A stretch of DNA of 64,000 nucleotides from a candidate division WOR-3 bacterium (GCA_965649295.1 CBFGKH010000004.1:32001-96000); one strand, 5' to 3'; counted from the first letter of the stretch, positions 6,704-36,956 are shown. The notes: generated by a model from the letters alone, not told the origin. Translations and numbers: made by a program.

Positions 6704-9700
6704 GTGAGTACTCCTGCCCACCGTCTTCTTCTCCTCCTCTTTCTTGTCACAATTGCCGCTGCCGACCCAACGCTCTACGAACCAATCCGGTTCGTCGCCC
6801 GTCCTGACTACGAACTAGGCTACGTCTTCATCGAGCGCTGGCGCGGTAACCAATACATCGGCGTCGAACGGGTCGTAACAATCAGTGACTATCTTGATTA
6901 CGAGCTGCGTCGCTCAGTCAGTGAGACCTGGCGTCAGAAGGTTGAACGCACTCAGGAGCGCCGCGAAATCGAGGCCGACGCTTCCGGACTGATCCCGGAC
7001 ATTGTTCTTCCTAAACTGCCTTTGTTTGGCGAAGGCAGCCGCATCGATATCTCTGGCCGCGACCGGATAACTCTCGGCGGCCGGCAGACATTTGTTCGCG
7101 GCGCCTATCTCTCCTCGGGCAGCCTTTTCCCGGAGCTCAAGATGGAGCAACAGCTCTCGGTTCTGCTCAACGGTACGATCGGTGAGCGCACCAAGGTAAC
7201 GATTGACTACGATGTTGAGCGACGCAGCAGTGACAACAAGGTACTGCTCGCCTACACCGGTACCGAGGACGAAATCGTCCAGACTGTCGAACTCGGCAAC
7301 ACCCGTCTTTCGATTCCCGCTACTGCCTATACCGGTGACCTGCCCGCCCGCAAGGGACTGTTCGGTGCATCGGCCCGGGGGCGGCTTGGCGGCATTGACA
7401 TCTATGCCGTTGCCTCTCGTGAGGAGTCACAGGGTCAAACCCAGACCTTTACTGGCCGACGCATCGTGAACACTGACACGATCTACTGTGGCCAATATCT
7501 GCCCCGGCGCTTCTATGTCCTGCCCGTACCTGAGACCACGACGGTTCGCTCAGTTCGCGTCTATATAGATGACAAGAATCAATCAAACAACCAGACCTCA
7601 GAACCAGGGATTGCCACAGTTTGGCCAGACCAACCTGACCGTCTGCCTGACTCGACTAACTGGACCTACGACCGCGCACCTGGCGCCTTCGATCCCCGCA
7701 TCGCCAACAAGGACTACATCATCCACCCCGGCAACATCATCGAGTTCACCACCACAATTGACAACAACAATGTCATCGGCCTCATCATTGAAACCGCCAC
7801 CGACACTATTGGCGGCAGCTACTACCAGGACTCGCTCGTCCTCCTGTTGCTCAAACCGGAACGTACCGACACATCATCACTCACCTGGGACAACGAGATG
7901 CGCAACATCTACAGCCTGCGCCGCAACGACGTCAGTCTGCAGAGCTTCCGACTCTACCGGGATTCAACTGGCAGCGTTGATCTCGAGTATGAAGACCAAG
8001 GCCCCAATGCCGGTCGTCGTTTCAGCGAAATCCTCGGCATTGACCCAGACGGCGATGGTCGAATTGACTATCCTTGGTTCGAGGCTAAGACCGGCCTCAT
8101 TCGCTTTCCTGGCCGGAAGCCATTCCAAGACCCCGGTCTGAGCGTTCGCGAATCAATCATCTACCGGAAGGAGCCGTCTCAGCTCCGCCCCGACGAGGGC
8201 CGCAAGTATTTCATCGTCGCCACCTACACTAGCACCACTGAGAAATACTACCTCGGGCAACCCGATATCACCGAAAACTCCGAACGGGTAATGGTCAACG
8301 GCGAGGTCTGGCGCAGGGGTGATGACTACACGATTGACTACCGAGCTGGCACCATTAACTTCGTCCGGCCGCTCCTGCCCGACGCCAACATCCAAGTTAC
8401 CTACGAGTATCAGCCTATTTTCTCGATCAGTCAGAAGTCGCTCGTCGGCACACGCGCAGAATGGAATCCGGCGCCAGCGACCCGCGTCGGCACAAGTCTG
8501 TTCTTCCGCGGCGAGGGCACCGCCGACGAACGACCTCAGCTCGGCACCGAACCGTTCAACCGCGCCATCGCCGAGGCTGATGCTGCCTATGCCTGGACAT
8601 CCGACGCAGTCACCGCTTTCATTGACCGACTGCCGGTGATTCGCGCCTCCAATCCCACTCGCTTCGATGCTGCCGGCGAGGTCGCTCTCTCCCTACCTGA
8701 CCCCAATACCCGCGGTACAGCATGGCTCGATGATTTCAGCGGCACCACCCTGACCAGCGACGTCTCAATCACCAGCGGACTCTGGTCCTGGGCCTCGGTA
8801 CCGGTAGAAAAGGACACTGCCGATTTTGCCACCCGACCAATATTCTGGCGCAACGCCCGCCGCGGCCAGCAGGTACCGATCGACTCCGTCTTCGGCCCCC
8901 AGACCGGCCGCAGCGGCGAAACACACGATTACCTACGTGTCATCTACCAGCCTGATTCCAACAATCCAAACAGTTGGGCTGGCATAATGACTGGTATCAG
9001 CGGCGGCAGCAATCTGTCCGACTTCGAGAATTTACAGATTGTGCTGCGCTCCCGCCGTCGTAGCGGCCGCATCCACATTACTGTCGGCTATTCGATTGAT
9101 GAGGACGCACCGCGACGTAACCGCGCTGGCCGTATCGTCGGCTATGACGGTATCAATAACACTGAAGACCGCAACGGCAACGGAATCCTCGATGCCGACG
9201 AGGATACTGGACTCGACGGCATCTTTGGCGATGACAGTAAGTGGAACCCGGACTCCGCCGACGACGGCAACGACGACTTCGATGAAGAGATCAATCCGAA
9301 CGGCACTGAAGGTAATCGTCGCACGACACCCGACGCCGAGGACCTCGACCGCTCCGGCTTCAGCCGCTACAACCACTACTTCGAATGTGCCATCAATCTC
9401 GACGACGCCCGCTGGCTGCAGCCGCTCCATCGGGACTGGCAACTGCTCCGCGTTCCGCTCAAGGACTCCACCATTTTCCGCGCCACTGGCCGGCCACGTT
9501 GGGAAGACGTCCGGCTCGTTCGCATCTGGTTCGACAACTTCATCGCCACCGACACAATTGACTTCTACTCTATCGAGTTCACCGGTTCACGCTGGGCTAG
9601 CCCACGACTGACCACGCTCACTGGCCAGCCGGTCCGACCACCAAAGCGTGACACACTCACTCCGATTTGGCATCATAACACTGCTAGCGACACTGTCGAT

Positions 9701-12295
9701 CGTGTTTGGGTTCGGATGATATCACGTACCACCGACCCAGGCATCTATACTTCACCATATGAACTCAGGAAAGACGCGCAAGGACGCCTTGAAGAGGAAG
9801 CAGCATTACTACTGGGCTATCAACGCCTACGGGCTGACCGGCGGGCGGTCATTACCCGCGTCGCTGCCGACCGGGACGACTACCGCGACTACCGCGAACT
9901 CCGCATCTACGTTCACGATGACGGCAACTCGCTCAGCTTTCTTCTTCGCCTTGGGTCCGACTCACTCAACTACTACGAGTATCGGGCTCCAATAACTGCC
10001 GGACGACTCGTGCCTGGCCGCGATGACCGGTGGTATGAGTTCGCAATCCCCCTCGACTCGTTGCCGATACTCAAGGTCCTCAAGGCCCAGCGTGACTCAC
10101 AGACTACGCCAACCGATACATTCAGCCGCGGCCAGTATCGCCTTCGCGGCAACCCGACACTGGCCGACATCCGCTACACCGCCCTTGGCATCGAGAACGA
10201 AACTAACGATTTGATATCCGGGGCAATCTGGTTCAATGACATGCGACTGTCCGGGCCTCGTCGCGAGACCGGCTACGGTGCCCAGGCTCGAGCCGCTCTG
10301 TCCCTTGCCGACTTTGTCACTGCCAGCGCCAACGTCAACTACTCAGATCCAAATTTCCGCCGATTCAGTGAGGGGCGTGAGGTCAAAATTGGTGGATTCG
10401 GTACCCAGCTGGCCGCGAGCATCCGTACCAACTTTGACCGGCTGCTACCCTATAGTTGGGGACTCTCGATACCACTTCTCTATCAGGTTTCAAGGCAGGA
10501 AAACCTGCCGAAGTACTCAACTGACTACTCTGATCTGCGCACAGCCGGCACAATTGACAGTTTGGAACGGTCATTTGGCCGAACTGAGGAATTTGCCATC
10601 GAGAACGTCCGCAAGCAGCGATCAGGCAGTCGGTTACTCAACTACACGGTTGAAGCTCTGACTTTTTCCGGCCGCCGCCGCAAGGCCACCAACCAAGGCC
10701 CACTCGGCACCGACACCTCGACGAGCACAACTACCCAACTTGCCTATGCAATCGCGCCCGCCTGGCGAATAGGGGTCTGGGGCGACGAAGAACTATCCCT
10801 CCTGCCCCAGAACATTCGTCTTGCCGCCGTCCAAACCCAGCGCCGAGATTTCCGACGCACTTTCCGTCCCCGGCTCGACTCAACCTTGGTGCGGGCCGCA
10901 GTTCTCAGCACCGATGCCAGCATTGACTACTCACCGTTTGATGAGCTGGACTTTGGTCTTGACTTCCAGTCCGAACGTGACCTGCTGCCTGATTCAGCTC
11001 GGCCGTGGTACCAACGAGTCGGAACCGAGGCAAGTCAAGACCAGAGTTTCGATGCTGGCTACGAGATTGAACTTGGCGACGTCCTAACGCCGAGTATTGA
11101 CTTCAGTAGCTCCTACTCACACGACCGGCTCAAAGCTGGCAACCAATACCTGTCGGTACGCAACATGAACAACTCCGGCGATGTTGACCTGTCGCTTGGC
11201 CTGGATATTCCCGAGATTCTCGAACGACTTGGCGCTGAACCAACCCCTAGCCGCACCCGAGCGGCCGCTGAGACTTCCAGTGTTCCCAGCCGGGCCGCAC
11301 CGAAGACAGGAACTGCGTTGCGTCAGCGTCTCGGTCGAATCGCCCGCTATATCGAGCCCGTTGACATCGCCTACTCCTATTCCCGCGGAAGCGACCTTGT
11401 TGCCGTGTCGGGCGATGCTCCGATTGCCTATCGGTTCGGCATCGTCAACTACTTCACTACCAGTGAATCTGCCCCGCCGACAAGCATCACCCGTGACCAG
11501 GACAATACCTTGCGCGCCTCTTCCGGCCTGCGCTTCGGCGAAGTGTCCAGCCGGGTAGCTTTTGACGCCACTGGCGGCCGGCAGTATCGCATCATTTCTC
11601 GCAACCAAAGTGCAGTACTAGATAGCACCGTCACTTGGCCGGACCTGACACTGAACATCGGTAAAGTACACAACCTGTTCAAGGAGCTTGCGACCAGCTC
11701 GACTCTGTCCTCGCGGTTTGCGCTACGTCGTGTTTTGTCTGGCGAACTAAGACGAGATACACTGGACCGAGAGTATCTCGCTGTCTATGGCCGTACGGAA
11801 ACCAACCGGGTCGAATTCAGTCCTCTGCTCTCCTGGCAGACCAGCTGGAAACGACGGGTGACGACCACACTGTCGGCTAACTACACCATGGCGCGAGCAA
11901 CGAGTTTTCGCAACGAGACAGGAACAAACAAAGGAGAATCGGATACGCGCACACGCGGGGCCGAACTTTCACTTGCCTATTCGTTTGCGGCGCCTCAAGG
12001 TATCAAACTGCCGTTTCTATCCAAGGTCCGCTTCTCATCCGACCTAAGCCTGACCTGGTCCCTGCGCTACTCCAACAGCCTGCGCCGCGATCGGCTAATC
12101 ACCGACCAGAACCAAAACCCAAACTGGACCGGGCTGCAGAACGATAACTCGGTAGCAACCACCCTCTCTGCTTCCTATCGCTTCTCCCGCTCAATTGAAG
12201 CAGGATTGCAAACCGGCTACTCTCGGGCAAAAGGGCTGGCCCCGCAAACGACCGAGACGCTAGACCTCAATGTCTGGGTGATGTTCCGGTTCTAG
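6704..12295 (+). CDS. sprA: SprA/Sov-like type IX secretion system outer-membrane translocon
   Basis: 1863 aa, signal peptide; L.Y.G.EDEIVQ.VELGN, GLFG....GRLG, DYTIDY..G.I.F, W.WAS.P, EDTGLDG, FLLRLGSD..NYYEY, GNPTL..IRY, IWFNDMRL blocks recognised from SprA; C-terminal aromatic beta-signal (VMFRF). Confidence 0.85.
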   Translation: MSTPAHRLLLLLFLVTIAAADPTLYEPIRFVARPDYELGYVFIERWRGNQYIGVERVVTISDYLDYELRRSVSETWRQKVERTQERREIEADASGLIPDIVLPKLPLFGEGSRIDISGRDRITLGGRQTFVRGAYLSSGSLFPELKMEQQLSVLLNGTIGERTKVTIDYDVERRSSDNKVLLAYTGTEDEIVQTVELGNTRLSIPATAYTGDLPARKGLFGASARGRLGGIDIYAVASREESQGQTQTFTGRRIVNTDTIYCGQYLPRRFYVLPVPETTTVRSVRVYIDDKNQSNNQTSEPGIATVWPDQPDRLPDSTNWTYDRAPGAFDPRIANKDYIIHPGNIIEFTTTIDNNNVIGLIIETATDTIGGSYYQDSLVLLLLKPERTDTSSLTWDNEMRNIYSLRRNDVSLQSFRLYRDSTGSVDLEYEDQGPNAGRRFSEILGIDPDGDGRIDYPWFEAKTGLIRFPGRKPFQDPGLSVRESIIYRKEPSQLRPDEGRKYFIVATYTSTTEKYYLGQPDITENSERVMVNGEVWRRGDDYTIDYRAGTINFVRPLLPDANIQVTYEYQPIFSISQKSLVGTRAEWNPAPATRVGTSLFFRGEGTADERPQLGTEPFNRAIAEADAAYAWTSDAVTAFIDRLPVIRASNPTRFDAAGEVALSLPDPNTRGTAWLDDFSGTTLTSDVSITSGLWSWASVPVEKDTADFATRPIFWRNARRGQQVPIDSVFGPQTGRSGETHDYLRVIYQPDSNNPNSWAGIMTGISGGSNLSDFENLQIVLRSRRRSGRIHITVGYSIDEDAPRRNRAGRIVGYDGINNTEDRNGNGILDADEDTGLDGIFGDDSKWNPDSADDGNDDFDEEINPNGTEGNRRTTPDAEDLDRSGFSRYNHYFECAINLDDARWLQPLHRDWQLLRVPLKDSTIFRATGRPRWEDVRLVRIWFDNFIATDTIDFYSIEFTGSRWASPRLTTLTGQPVRPPKRDTLTPIWHHNTASDTVDRVWVRMISRTTDPGIYTSPYELRKDAQGRLEEEAALLLGYQRLRADRRAVITRVAADRDDYRDYRELRIYVHDDGNSLSFLLRLGSDSLNYYEYRAPITAGRLVPGRDDRWYEFAIPLDSLPILKVLKAQRDSQTTPTDTFSRGQYRLRGNPTLADIRYTALGIENETNDLISGAIWFNDMRLSGPRRETGYGAQARAALSLADFVTASANVNYSDPNFRRFSEGREVKIGGFGTQLAASIRTNFDRLLPYSWGLSIPLLYQVSRQENLPKYSTDYSDLRTAGTIDSLERSFGRTEEFAIENVRKQRSGSRLLNYTVEALTFSGRRRKATNQGPLGTDTSTSTTTQLAYAIAPAWRIGVWGDEELSLLPQNIRLAAVQTQRRDFRRTFRPRLDSTLVRAAVLSTDASIDYSPFDELDFGLDFQSERDLLPDSARPWYQRVGTEASQDQSFDAGYEIELGDVLTPSIDFSSSYSHDRLKAGNQYLSVRNMNNSGDVDLSLGLDIPEILERLGAEPTPSRTRAAAETSSVPSRAAPKTGTALRQRLGRIARYIEPVDIAYSYSRGSDLVAVSGDAPIAYRFGIVNYFTTSESAPPTSITRDQDNTLRASSGLRFGEVSSRVAFDATGGRQYRIISRNQSAVLDSTVTWPDLTLNIGKVHNLFKELATSSTLSSRFALRRVLSGELRRDTLDREYLAVYGRTETNRVEFSPLLSWQTSWKRRVTTTLSANYTMARATSFRNETGTNKGESDTRTRGAELSLAYSFAAPQGIKLPFLSKVRFSSDLSLTWSLRYSNSLRRDRLITDQNQNPNWTGLQNDNSVATTLSASYRFSRSIEAGLQTGYSRAKGLAPQTTETLDLNVWVMFRF

Positions 12296-13461
12296 TTGCG
12301 GAGCGCTGCCAGCAGCGTGTAGGCCGCGAGACGCGGATTGACTCCGTAGCGCGAGCAATCGTCCTTTCTTGCTAACAGATACTTCACTGCTCGTCGCAGA
12401 TAATCCGGCTGCAGATTATCAATCCGACGGCGCGCAGCAGGATTTCGCTCGATGAAATCTGAACCGGCGCCTAGCCGGTAGCGCATAGCCTGGCGGTAGA
12501 GAAACAGGAAAGTACCAACGACTATCGGTGCCGGCGTATCTGCGAGTTCTTCGAGCAGTTGAAGTGGTTGGCCAGTCCCCTGACAGAAGTAGTCGACAAT
12601 CGACTGACTCAGCACCGCCTCTGGCTCGGTTAGGAACCGGTCGGCCAGTCCAAGCGATCCCGCCCCAAACAATCCAGCCAGCGCGGCCTGTTCAGGATTG
12701 GCCTGCCGATGGGTCATTAGCCACTCCTGGATGACCCTTGCCGTTAGGTCGCCAAACCTAACTACCGCACAGCGTGAGCGGATCGTGTCGGGGACTGCCC
12801 ACAGGTTATCGGTGGTGAGAACGAAAGTGGTCTGCTCCTGAGGCTCCTCCAGTATCTTAAGCAAGGCATTAGCGGCCACCTCGTTCATTCGGTGCGCCAT
12901 GAGAATAATGACGAACCGCTGACGAGCGGCCAGCGGCGCCCGCGACATCTCGCTACGAAGCCAGCGAATCGTGCCAATGTGAATCTGATGACGCGGATCC
13001 GGTACCGGCTGCGACCTGCCGAGGCAGTACTCAGGATACCGACTCGTTGTTTCCGAGGCGTACTCCTCTGGCTTGGCGTCATCGCCACTCAGTGCCTTGA
13101 TCGGAAAAACAAGCTTCACATCGGGATGTGTAAGGGATGCAATACTGCGACATGCTCGACAATCACCGCAGGGATTGAAGGTCGGTTCCTGGCCGCCCGC
13201 GGCATCTCTTGGGTCAAATGCCTTCTGTTCTTGACAATTCGCCGCCTGGGCCAGTCGCAGGGCAGCGGTTCGCTTACCGACTCCAGCCTGACCAATGAAA
13301 AGTAGTGACTGCCGGTGGTCGGCAGCTAACCAACGACCAAGCACCCGCACGACCCGATCTTGCCCGACGATCAAAGAACCGGGCTGTGAGCTCGAAAGCC
13401 CAAAGGTCAAGCTTACTGATTTGGAATTCGAGATTCGCGGGCCGGACCTAGCTCTAGCCAT
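12292..13461 (-). CDS. holB: DNA polymerase III subunit delta-prime-like clamp-loader subunit
   Basis: LLFIGQAGVGK, PCGDCRAC zinc site, HPDV, AANALLKILEEP, TIRSRC. Confidence 0.85.
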   Translation of the reverse strand: MARARSGPRISNSKSVSLTFGLSSSQPGSLIVGQDRVVRVLGRWLAADHRQSLLFIGQAGVGKRTAALRLAQAANCQEQKAFDPRDAAGGQEPTFNPCGDCRACRSIASLTHPDVKLVFPIKALSGDDAKPEEYASETTSRYPEYCLGRSQPVPDPRHQIHIGTIRWLRSEMSRAPLAARQRFVIILMAHRMNEVAANALLKILEEPQEQTTFVLTTDNLWAVPDTIRSRCAVVRFGDLTARVIQEWLMTHRQANPEQAALAGLFGAGSLGLADRFLTEPEAVLSQSIVDYFCQGTGQPLQLLEELADTPAPIVVGTFLFLYRQAMRYRLGAGSDFIERNPAARRRIDNLQPDYLRRAVKYLLARKDDCSRYGVNPRLAAYTLLAALRN

Positions 13462-23323: not shown

Positions 23324-23352
23324 TTGACAGTCAATGCCCGGCTGTCGATACT
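23324..23352 (+). promoter_or_regulatory. Putative sigma70 promoter (leaderless, GTG at 23358)
   Basis: TTGACA-17 nt-GATACT, then 5 nt to an in-frame GTG. Confidence 0.6.
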
Positions 23353-23357
23353 TTCAT

Positions 23358-24761
23358 GTGTCCATTCTCGGCCACCTGCTACTAGGCGTTAGCCTCGTTG
23401 GTGCCTGGTCAATCTTATCAGACGCACCGTTTGACCAGCAGGCTCCAACAATCGCCACGACCGCCACCGGTTTTGTCGTCGCCTGGCAGGACAATCGCAA
23501 CCTGTCCCAGAATCAGCCACAGCAAATCTATGCCTGCCGCCTCGACAATAGCGGGCGGCTCATTGACACTGCCGGGATTCGGCTCTCGTCAGACAGCGAA
23601 GCAGACGACGCCGGACCAAAGGTCTCAGCTAGCGACAGCCACTGCCTTGTCATCTGGCATCGCGGTTGCTGATTCAACCGCGATGTGCTCGGTGCCCGGG
23701 TGGCACCAGACGGAAACCCTGGCCCCACGATAATTATCAATAGCCAGCGTCAGGACCAATTCGTCACCAGCCTGGCATGGAACGGCGCCCAATACCTAGT
23801 CGCTTGGCAAGATCGCCGCTGGAGCCCAATGCGGATTGCTGTCACCCGCTTGACGCCTGACGGTACAGTCCTCGACACGGTCGGCTTGCCGCTGAACGGA
23901 CAGGACACCCTGGCCCTCCAGACCGGCCCAGCAGTGACCAGCAACGGGACTGACTGGCTGGTCACCTGGCTCTCGGACGGGCTTGACGTCTGTGCATTGC
24001 GGATTGCCGCCAACGGCACCCAGCTCGATAGCACTGTTCTTTCTCTTGCTCCTGGCCAGCCGTTCGAATACGCTGTTGCCGCTGCAGCCGACAACAATAA
24101 CTATCTCGTGGTCTGGGCTGGCGACTCGCCTTCTGGCCGCGGCTCGGACTTACTCGGTATTCGCCTCGCGCCTGATGGCACAGTTCTCGACCCTGAACCA
24201 TTCGTGATTGCCAGCCATCAGGCCGAACTGAGCTCGCCGGCAGTTGCCTACGCTGACGGTCTCTATCTTGTAGTTTGGACTGACTGGCAGGTTGACGGCG
24301 ACATCTGTGCCAGCCGTGTGCTGCCATCAGGAATCGTGCTTGACCCTGACGGCTTTACGGTCTGTGCTGACATAGGTGTCCAGCGCCATCCGGCCGTAGC
24401 TGCCGGACACGGCCGTTTTGTTGTTGTCTGGTCTGGAGTCGGCGCTGATTCTAGCTACGACATCTATGCTGCTGTTCTCGACAGCCTCAATCCGACCGCC
24501 CTGAACAGGGAACCTCAAGAGCCGCGGACATTACTTGCATCACTCGTCAGCCCATTACGTGTCGGCAGGCCGATCACACTCTCTGCCATATTGCCTTGCT
24601 CGATCCAACTCCACCTCTTGGATAGCAATGGTCGTGTTGTCCGCAGCGCAGCCAGCTCGAACAACCTTATCGATACCGAGGGCCTGCCCCCCGGCGTCTA
24701 CTTTCTCATCCTGGCAGGAGGCAAAAAGACTGCCGCCACTCGGGTTCTTCTCATCAAGTAG
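23358..24761 (+). CDS. Secreted beta-propeller-like repeat protein with T9SS-type CTD, with one in-frame UGA at 23670-23672 (candidate selenoprotein; alternatively a nonsense pseudogene)
   Basis: ORFs 23334..23672 and 23685..24761 are in the same frame; xLVxW..D(I/V)xxxRxxxxG repeat continues across TGA (WHRGC*FNRDVLGAR); N-terminal signal-like peptide; C-terminal LPPGVYFL...RVLLIK. Confidence 0.7.
23685..23711 (+). promoter_or_regulatory. Putative bacterial SECIS hairpin
   Basis: GGTGCC-CGGGT-GGCACC (23691-23707), extendable by GT/CT : AG/AC pairs with single bulges; loop begins 24 nt after UGA and has G at position 2. Confidence 0.5.
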
Positions 24762-36872: not shown

Positions 36873-36882
36873 GATACCACAG

Positions 36883-36956
36883 TGGGCGATACTAGAGTCG
36901 AACTAGTGACCTCTGGTATGTGAGACCAGCGCTCTAACCAACTGAGCTAATCGCCC
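36883..36956 (-). tRNA. tRNA-Val(CAC), CCA not encoded
   Basis: GGGCGATTAGCTCAGTTGGTTAGAGCG-CTGGT-CTCACAT-ACCAG-AGGTC-ACTAGTTCGACTCTAGT-ATCGCCC-A cloverleaf. Confidence 0.95.

Follow-up and report, generated by a model that had tools for sequence, protein, structure and literature searches.

A conserved in-frame UGA that very probably encodes selenocysteine in a family of predicted seven-bladed beta-propellers from uncultured bacteria

Selenocysteine (Sec) genes of bacteria that depend on SelB and a SECIS element have fdhF of Escherichia coli as their prototype. According to the bacterial SECIS consensus, the loop of the hairpin lies 16-37 nt from the UGA and carries a G among its first two bases. 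Insertion of Sec in bacteria competes with termination, and splitting at the TGA is the usual fate of selenoprotein genes in gene callers. Catalogues of bacterial selenoproteins have been built mostly from pairs of Sec- and Cys-containing homologs and, to our knowledge, nearly all selenoprotein families have a Cys form, although having one is customary rather than part of the definition. A Cys directly before the Sec is a context familiar from Sec redox centres; in mammalian thioredoxin reductase the C-terminal Gly-Cys-Sec-Gly cycles between the selenolthiol and the selenenylsulfide.

Cell-envelope selenoproteins have been predicted before, a TonB-dependent receptor of the outer membrane by deep-Sep (PMC12013277) and a beta-barrel of the MtrB/PioB family in a table of PMC9312934. 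As far as the portions of these two sources considered here go, both resemble the present protein in being assigned to the envelope and predicted by computation alone; however, both are barrels with Cys homologs, whereas the protein described here is predicted to be a soluble propeller exported by the type IX secretion system (T9SS), for which no Cys homolog was found in the sets searched. The family itself was not found in the full-text literature on selenoproteins with type IX secretion, WOR-3, FG-GAP or beta-propeller. Similarly, the terms secretion, T9SS and propeller led to nothing relevant in the consulted portions of the deep-Sep and BSepDB papers and of two reviews (PMC13188914, PMC12013277, PMC13326102, PMC9312934), the supplementary tables of which could list candidates. 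The authors of deep-Sep state, in the portion of PMC12013277 considered here, that selenoproteins without Cys homologs may be missed by their method, and such a blind spot would explain why the family was overlooked.

The gene lies in a stretch of 64,000 nucleotides (the window) from a WOR-3 genome of 19 contigs, 100% complete by marker genes. Like fdhF and the genome's own selD genes, it has an in-frame UGA followed, within the coding sequence, by a hairpin with a G-containing apical loop, and as in other SelB/SECIS-dependent systems the genome holds selA, selB, selD and tRNA-Sec. The family is related to no catalogued selenoprotein among the Pfam and NCBIfam models scanned, and Cys-form orthologs were not found in the searches reported below. 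On the plus strand, a frame that may start at ATG 23334 or GTG 23358 runs to the TAG at 24759-61, and the TGA at 23670-72 is its sole interruption, in the setting ...CLVIWHRG-C-TGA-FNRDVLGARVAPDG. Mechanical ORF calling cuts this frame into 23334-23672 (112 aa) and 23685-24761 (358 aa, GTG start), which agrees with an earlier reading of the sequence alone that took GTG 23358 as the start and had noticed two ORFs in one frame parted by a single TGA. The features of the locus, together with those elsewhere in the window and genome that bear on it, are collected in Table 1.

Table 1. Positions of the predicted selenoprotein gene, its parts and other features; positions are those of the window unless a contig of the source genome (G000) is named.
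Feature	Position	Strand	Basis or remark
Whole predicted selenoprotein gene	23334..24761	+	475 codons + TAG; orthologs alignable end to end
Hydrophobic signal-peptide-like N-terminus, about residues 1-27	23334..23414	+	By eye
Seven-bladed beta-propeller (predicted), repeats 'P.VA..G..YLVVW.D.R....DIYGARV...G..LD'	23421..24488	+	Model and Foldseek
Cys codon TGC immediately 5' of the Sec codon	23667..23669	+	Cys in 11/12 orthologs, Ser in 1/12
In-frame TGA, very probably read as selenocysteine, residue 113	23670..23672	+	Conservation across homologs
SECIS-like hairpin	23691..23707	+	Arm GGUGCC 23691-96, loop CGGGU 23697-701, arm GGCACC 23702-07; covariation and control
T9SS type A C-terminal sorting domain, residues 415-472	24576..24749	+	TIGR04183, 28.7 bits, above the cut-off of 23
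SprA homolog, 1864-aa open frame	6842-12298 (= G000:C4:38842-44298)	+	TIGR04189 in several pieces
tRNA-Val(CAC) gene	36882-36956	-	ARAGORN
tmRNA gene, tag peptide ANNSYALAA	53977-54325	-	ARAGORN
selD, first gene	G000:C1:318451-319377	-	Context AAG-U-AAKV
selD, second gene	G000:C1:355394-356299	-	Context CAG-U-ASKL
selB	G000:C1:356367-358244		Directly beside the second selD; 345.3 bits

The TGA is conserved well beyond the source genome. In a six-frame search of 60 relatives, the 11 best non-self matches, which are 30-45% identical and span several genera and families, contain exactly one TGA each, while the weaker ones are TGA-free paralogs some 850-1200 aa long. The codon occupies a single alignment column in all 12 read-through orthologs, which align at 30-42% identity, show coding conservation on both flanks of the TGA and share the motif W[HQ][RE]G-[C/S]-U-[FGD]x-R-[DN]. 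Within the order, full-length orthologs (600-737 bits) were recovered from 13 genomes out of 66, again with one TGA in every case; the matches that follow, from 296 bits downwards, are again long paralogs (about 850-1200 aa) that lack it. Amongst the 272 genomes of the phylum, nine more have relatives of 440-510 aa in which a TGA is likewise present, and these form two further subfamilies with the motifs ..[FY]GC-U-G[FL]GDIHGVRVTP and ..[SH]C-U-[SGT]xx[DN][IL]xGVRVTP; the family is present in at least 22 of the 272, plus many metagenome contigs. Closest amongst database proteins are those labelled 'candidate division WOR-3 bacterium'. Two Sec-propeller genes of the GCU-GFGD subfamily were also seen side by side in tandem (L160 and L161; genomes G095 and G094), and one tandem copy in G094 carries an in-frame TAG besides the TGA.

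Metagenomes were scanned with a pattern made of a Cys codon, TGN, a spacer and the codons of G-[AV]-R-V-[AT]-P, which places no constraint on the third base of the critical codon. At least 119 stretches were matched, of which 80 were read with their DNA, and amongst these 80 listed matches the critical codon is TGA in 73, TGC in five, TGT in one and TGG in one. The seven matches other than TGA do not represent Cys forms: five of the loci belong to a GDSL-like protein, one to an unrelated protein and one to a long multi-blade paralog with CC in a loop, and the matches reading CC and CW were rejected as candidates since they are not orthologs. Cys-form orthologs were found neither in the best 120 database homologs, nor in the 272 phylum genomes, nor among the 80 metagenome loci listed. 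Two TGA-free relatives of 460 aa (G252) have an ordinary loop at the place of the Cys-Sec pair. Hence, amongst the expectations that came with the sequence-only reading, conservation of the TGA at its column holds throughout the aligned orthologs and the order, in the further subfamilies of the phylum and in 73 of the 80 metagenome loci listed, and no homolog has Trp there, which would have spoken against the proposal; alternation of the TGA with Cys, on the other hand, did not appear. Among 59 full-length members, taken without redundancy, Sec is retained at its column in 100% and the preceding Cys in 98%, and the predicted Cys-Sec pair is the most conserved feature of the family.

A lone TGA with a hairpin after it is unremarkable and proves little. 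A relaxed genome-wide scan yielded 1101 'TGA + hairpin' sites in the 2.28-Mb genome and was set aside as evidence for being too unspecific, and the local fold at the present site yields a z-score of just -1.58. It is conservation and covariation, not the single sequence, that carry the weight here. The hairpin GGTGCC-CGGGT-GGCACC was located where the earlier reading had placed it: its arm begins 18 nt past the UGA, its loop 24 nt past, and G stands at loop position 2, a geometry that fits the bacterial SECIS consensus as outlined above. On an ungapped alignment of 27 TGA contexts RNAalifold, unprompted, proposed a single helix, in which columns 31-36 pair with 42-47. Paired cells amount to 98.1% as against 78.2% in shuffled alignments, none of 500 shuffles being as high, and to at most 69.8% when the 3' partner was slid. 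Pair 33-45, which joins two third-codon positions, occurs as CG (8), GC (6), AU (6), UA (5) and UG (1), the one remaining context being mismatched; CG (19), GC (7) and UA (1) are seen at pair 36-42, likewise between third-codon positions, so that the hairpin covaries at synonymous sites. At pair 35-43, UA (15) alternates with CG (10), and an Ala/Val choice in one arm is thereby coupled to an Ala/Thr choice in the other. Retention of the hairpin through compensatory changes, which the earlier reading had put forward for checking, is thus seen directly in these columns.

The metagenome matches agree with this picture. All six pairs are formed in 69 of the listed TGA matches and five of six in the other four, as compared with three to four of six in the matches other than TGA, although three of the six pairs are set by the scan pattern itself. 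The three pairs which the pattern leaves free are formed in 111, 115 and 114 of all 115 distinct contexts, where the loop reads CGUGU in 63 and CGGGU in 52. As a control for the peptide G[AV]RV[AT]P, the six pairs were counted in TGA-free blades that encode it and were found in only 1 of 96 distinct cases, as against 23 of 24 stretches after a TGA. Covariation and control together indicate that selection acts on the hairpin as an RNA structure. Another hairpin, a perfect one of 8 bp at 23661-23682 (+), CGCGGUUG-CUGAUU-CAACCGCG, holds the UGA in its 6-nt loop and is the minimum-free-energy feature of the local fold; it was rejected for want of conservation across the family, since it derives from Arg codons of the 'HRGCU..R' subgroup and the 'QEGCU' orthologs do not form it.

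The machinery required for selenocysteine, which the sequence-only reading had named as a check, is complete in the source genome. Along with selB, there are selA (575.6 bits), tRNA-Sec (72.9 bits against a gathering score of 47) and two selD genes of the Sec type with one in-frame TGA each (363.8 and 340.6 bits), and the matches for all four components are above curated cut-offs. Across the order, selA was detected in 61 of 66 genomes; in two of the 13 genomes holding orthologs, with completeness of 92% and 76%, no match to selA was obtained. TGA also serves as an ordinary terminator, ending the upstream gene (TGA 23319-21) and 4 of the 12 orthologs. With the UGA conserved, the hairpin covarying and the machinery present, we consider it very probable that the gene is intact, belongs to a new family and encodes Sec at its UGA.

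Foremost amongst the alternatives is a read-through of the UGA that uses no selenium, whether by a near-cognate tRNA (Trp or Cys), through another recoding signal or following a lineage-wide change of the code, the hairpin then merely slowing the ribosome. Such a view would sit well with the failure to find Cys-form homologs in the sets searched and with a stem as short as 6 bp. It would also accommodate the two selD genes, where the UGA is followed by hairpins that look different from the family hairpin and have no obvious sequence in common with it, so that the likeness to SECIS elements of the genome's known selenoproteins, which the sequence-only reading had proposed to look for, is not apparent. 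Nevertheless, a changed code is difficult to reconcile with TGA ending the upstream gene and a third of the aligned orthologs, and the genome not only has the complete Sec machinery but uses in-frame TGA in its selD genes themselves. Moreover, the hairpin keeps a fixed spacing of 18 nt and a conserved CG[GU]GU loop, and the UGA codon comes straight after a conserved Cys, as in Sec redox centres. We regard read-through of this kind as highly improbable.

The predicted structure of the product bears on one of the two remaining alternatives. The AlphaFold2 model, obtained with a 12-row alignment (pLDDT 80.1, pTM 0.80), is all-beta and has seven 'LVxW' blades, where about six copies of the repeat had been counted earlier. 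Its N-terminus is poorly defined, with pLDDT below 50 for residues 1-23 and a helix at 10-18. Foldseek against the PDB returned propellers with probability 1.00, CylK (7ron) being the top match (E 4.9e-10, TMq 0.58), followed lower down by sialidase-like and glycoside-hydrolase propellers, lectins and TolB, with PorZ (5m11) at rank 29. Pfam gave nothing over threshold for the protein, and NCBIfam only the T9SS tail. In the 'YLVVW.D.R.G..DIYGARV' repeat, the fold and the sorting domain, the protein resembles propellers that are T9SS cargo (PorZ, PDB 5m11) and the paralogs of 850-1200 aa; unlike those paralogs, which have no TGA, no Cys-Sec loop and no hairpin in their DNA, the selenoprotein family consists of single seven-blade propellers of 440-510 aa. 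Blade 2 spans the TGA, confirming that the repeat continues in register across the stop as had been claimed. The blade repeat itself is widespread, and the records that contain it carry labels such as Myxococcota, Actinomycetota and Acidobacteriota. Within the source genome, several paralogs of about 880-930 aa have this blade repeat without a TGA, for instance G000:C2:111438-113837 (-), C6:171836-174271 (+), C2:232534-234558 (-) and C14:15796-16986 (-).

One could still suppose that the locus holds two genes or undergoes a regulated truncation, producing mostly a 112-aa exported peptide while the downstream part is translated from GTG 23685; that codon does lie only 12 nt past the TGA, and Sec insertion in bacteria does compete with termination. 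A boundary within blade 2 of the propeller is, however, hard to explain in this manner, the equivalent position in the other subfamilies reads GAT-ATT-CAC and so offers no start codon, and the downstream part lacks a signal peptide just as the upstream part lacks a sorting tail, in line with the earlier remark that neither half is complete alone. A division of this sort is accordingly very improbable. Weakest of all is the notion of a dead or misassembled gene whose TGA would stem from a nonsense mutation or a miscalled base: although two ORFs are called and database orthologs exist only as fragments, it has hardly any chance of being correct given that the TGA column is kept in all orthologs examined, across lineages of only 27-45% identity, and in 73 metagenome loci listed, that coding conservation continues on either side, and that independent contigs of two studies keep the TGA. 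The database fragments are of 357 aa and begin just past the TGA. As for the contigs, Logan assemblies from four hot-spring metagenome runs of the two studies cover the TGA site, are 95-99% identical to the window and have no change at 23670-72 or in the hairpin among the differences listed, there being 32 less supported differences besides; they contradict the possibility, raised with the sequence-only reading, of an assembly error or a strain-specific mutation.

Our preferred reading is thus that of a single selenoprotein, and several features point to its export. A hydrophobic N-terminus was recognized by eye in 12 of 12 orthologs. The T9SS-type C-terminal domain claimed for the downstream part was recovered with TIGR04183, whereas the Pfam model Por_Secre_tail scores 21.5 bits, under its cut-off of 27. 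TIGR04183 is matched in 5 of the 12 orthologs at E <= 0.01, and most of the remaining ones match FlgD-Ig-like models or tails of other T9SS cargo models. From the combination of a signal-peptide-like N-terminus, a propeller and a T9SS type A tail, the protein is likely to be exported, and the product would most likely be displayed on the cell surface or released from it. Candidate genes for this route are present in the genome: the SprA homolog in the window sums to 445.8 bits against the TIGR04189 cut-off of 200, two PorU-like genes align over the full length of the model at 369 and 340 bits (under the cut-off of 420), and one of them is adjoined by a PorV-like gene at 87 bits (under the cut-off of 250). 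Taken with the sorting domain, these genes make export by T9SS likely.

In the predicted model, Cys112-Sec113 forms a two-residue tight turn of blade 2 between strands 104-112 and 115-123, which we take to be the B-C loop; the B-C loop usually lines the functional face of a propeller. Invariant in the 59 non-redundant members are D53, R55 and R69 of blade 1 as well as G120, R122 and V123, the last three of which fall in the stretch that also encodes the hairpin. We infer the following course of events. On arrival of the ribosome at the UGA, the 6-bp hairpin with its 5-nt loop, 18 nt downstream in the coding sequence, would recruit SelB with Sec-tRNA(Sec), and selenocysteine would be inserted in place of termination to give a selenoprotein of 475 residues. 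Together with D53, R55 and R69, the Cys112-Sec113 pair would most likely form a reactive selenolate/thiol centre, for which cycling via a selenenylsulfide and binding of a chalcophilic metal are both conceivable.

The vicinal Cys-Sec after a Gly recalls mammalian thioredoxin reductase, and one subfamily reads exactly G-C-U-G. Nevertheless, the resemblance is confined to the dipeptide: whereas the reductase is a flavoenzyme that bears its pair on a flexible C-terminal tail, here the pair lies within the chain, at a beta-turn of a propeller blade; FAD and NADPH domains are absent, and an extracellular location is predicted. Accordingly, a redox or capture role of the predicted Cys-Sec centre is put forward tentatively, at somewhat less than an even chance. 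The fuller proposal of a working extracellular selenenylsulfide/selenolate redox or capture centre on a T9SS-displayed propeller, possibly with sulfur, selenium or chalcophilic metals as substrates, is more doubtful and on balance unlikely; hot-spring and sediment habitats form the setting of the substrate idea. Within 1.5 kb on either side no gene is common beyond closely related genomes, and the neighbourhood therefore offers no hint of a partner.

The recoding machinery is of a known bacterial type, and the protein family is very probably new, apparently undescribed and widespread in uncultured bacteria. Its recognition corrects the annotation of split genes and extends the predicted use of selenium to an exported propeller scaffold that does not look like an enzyme. 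The hairpin is a compact SECIS variant with good covariation, suitable for training predictors, and the family offers a testable case of selenium chemistry at the bacterial cell surface. If the proposed extracellular redox or capture centre were true, these proteins would be the first surface-displayed selenoenzymes of bacteria, and they would constitute a Sec-only family, invisible to selenoprotein finders that work by homology.

Some observations concern possible selenocysteine codons outside the family. In the source genome, a TGA with a downstream hairpin near 82600 of contig C9 (+) reads '..VVDDC-U-MGRPEAKV' and is open for 196 codons upstream and 451 downstream, and another near 61248 of C8 (+) reads '..GWYRC-U-GDNCTIAQ' and is open for 100 and 228 codons, respectively; both may belong to other selenoprotein genes. 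A record titled uncultured Ignavibacteria (L086:538-609) contains a 904-aa frame of a multi-blade paralog with 'GG-TGA-GF' in a blade loop, and 14 nt past this UGA lies a perfect 8-bp hairpin, GAUCCGCG-GUU-CGCGGAUC, unlike that of the family. This paralog may represent an independent acquisition of Sec within the repeat family.
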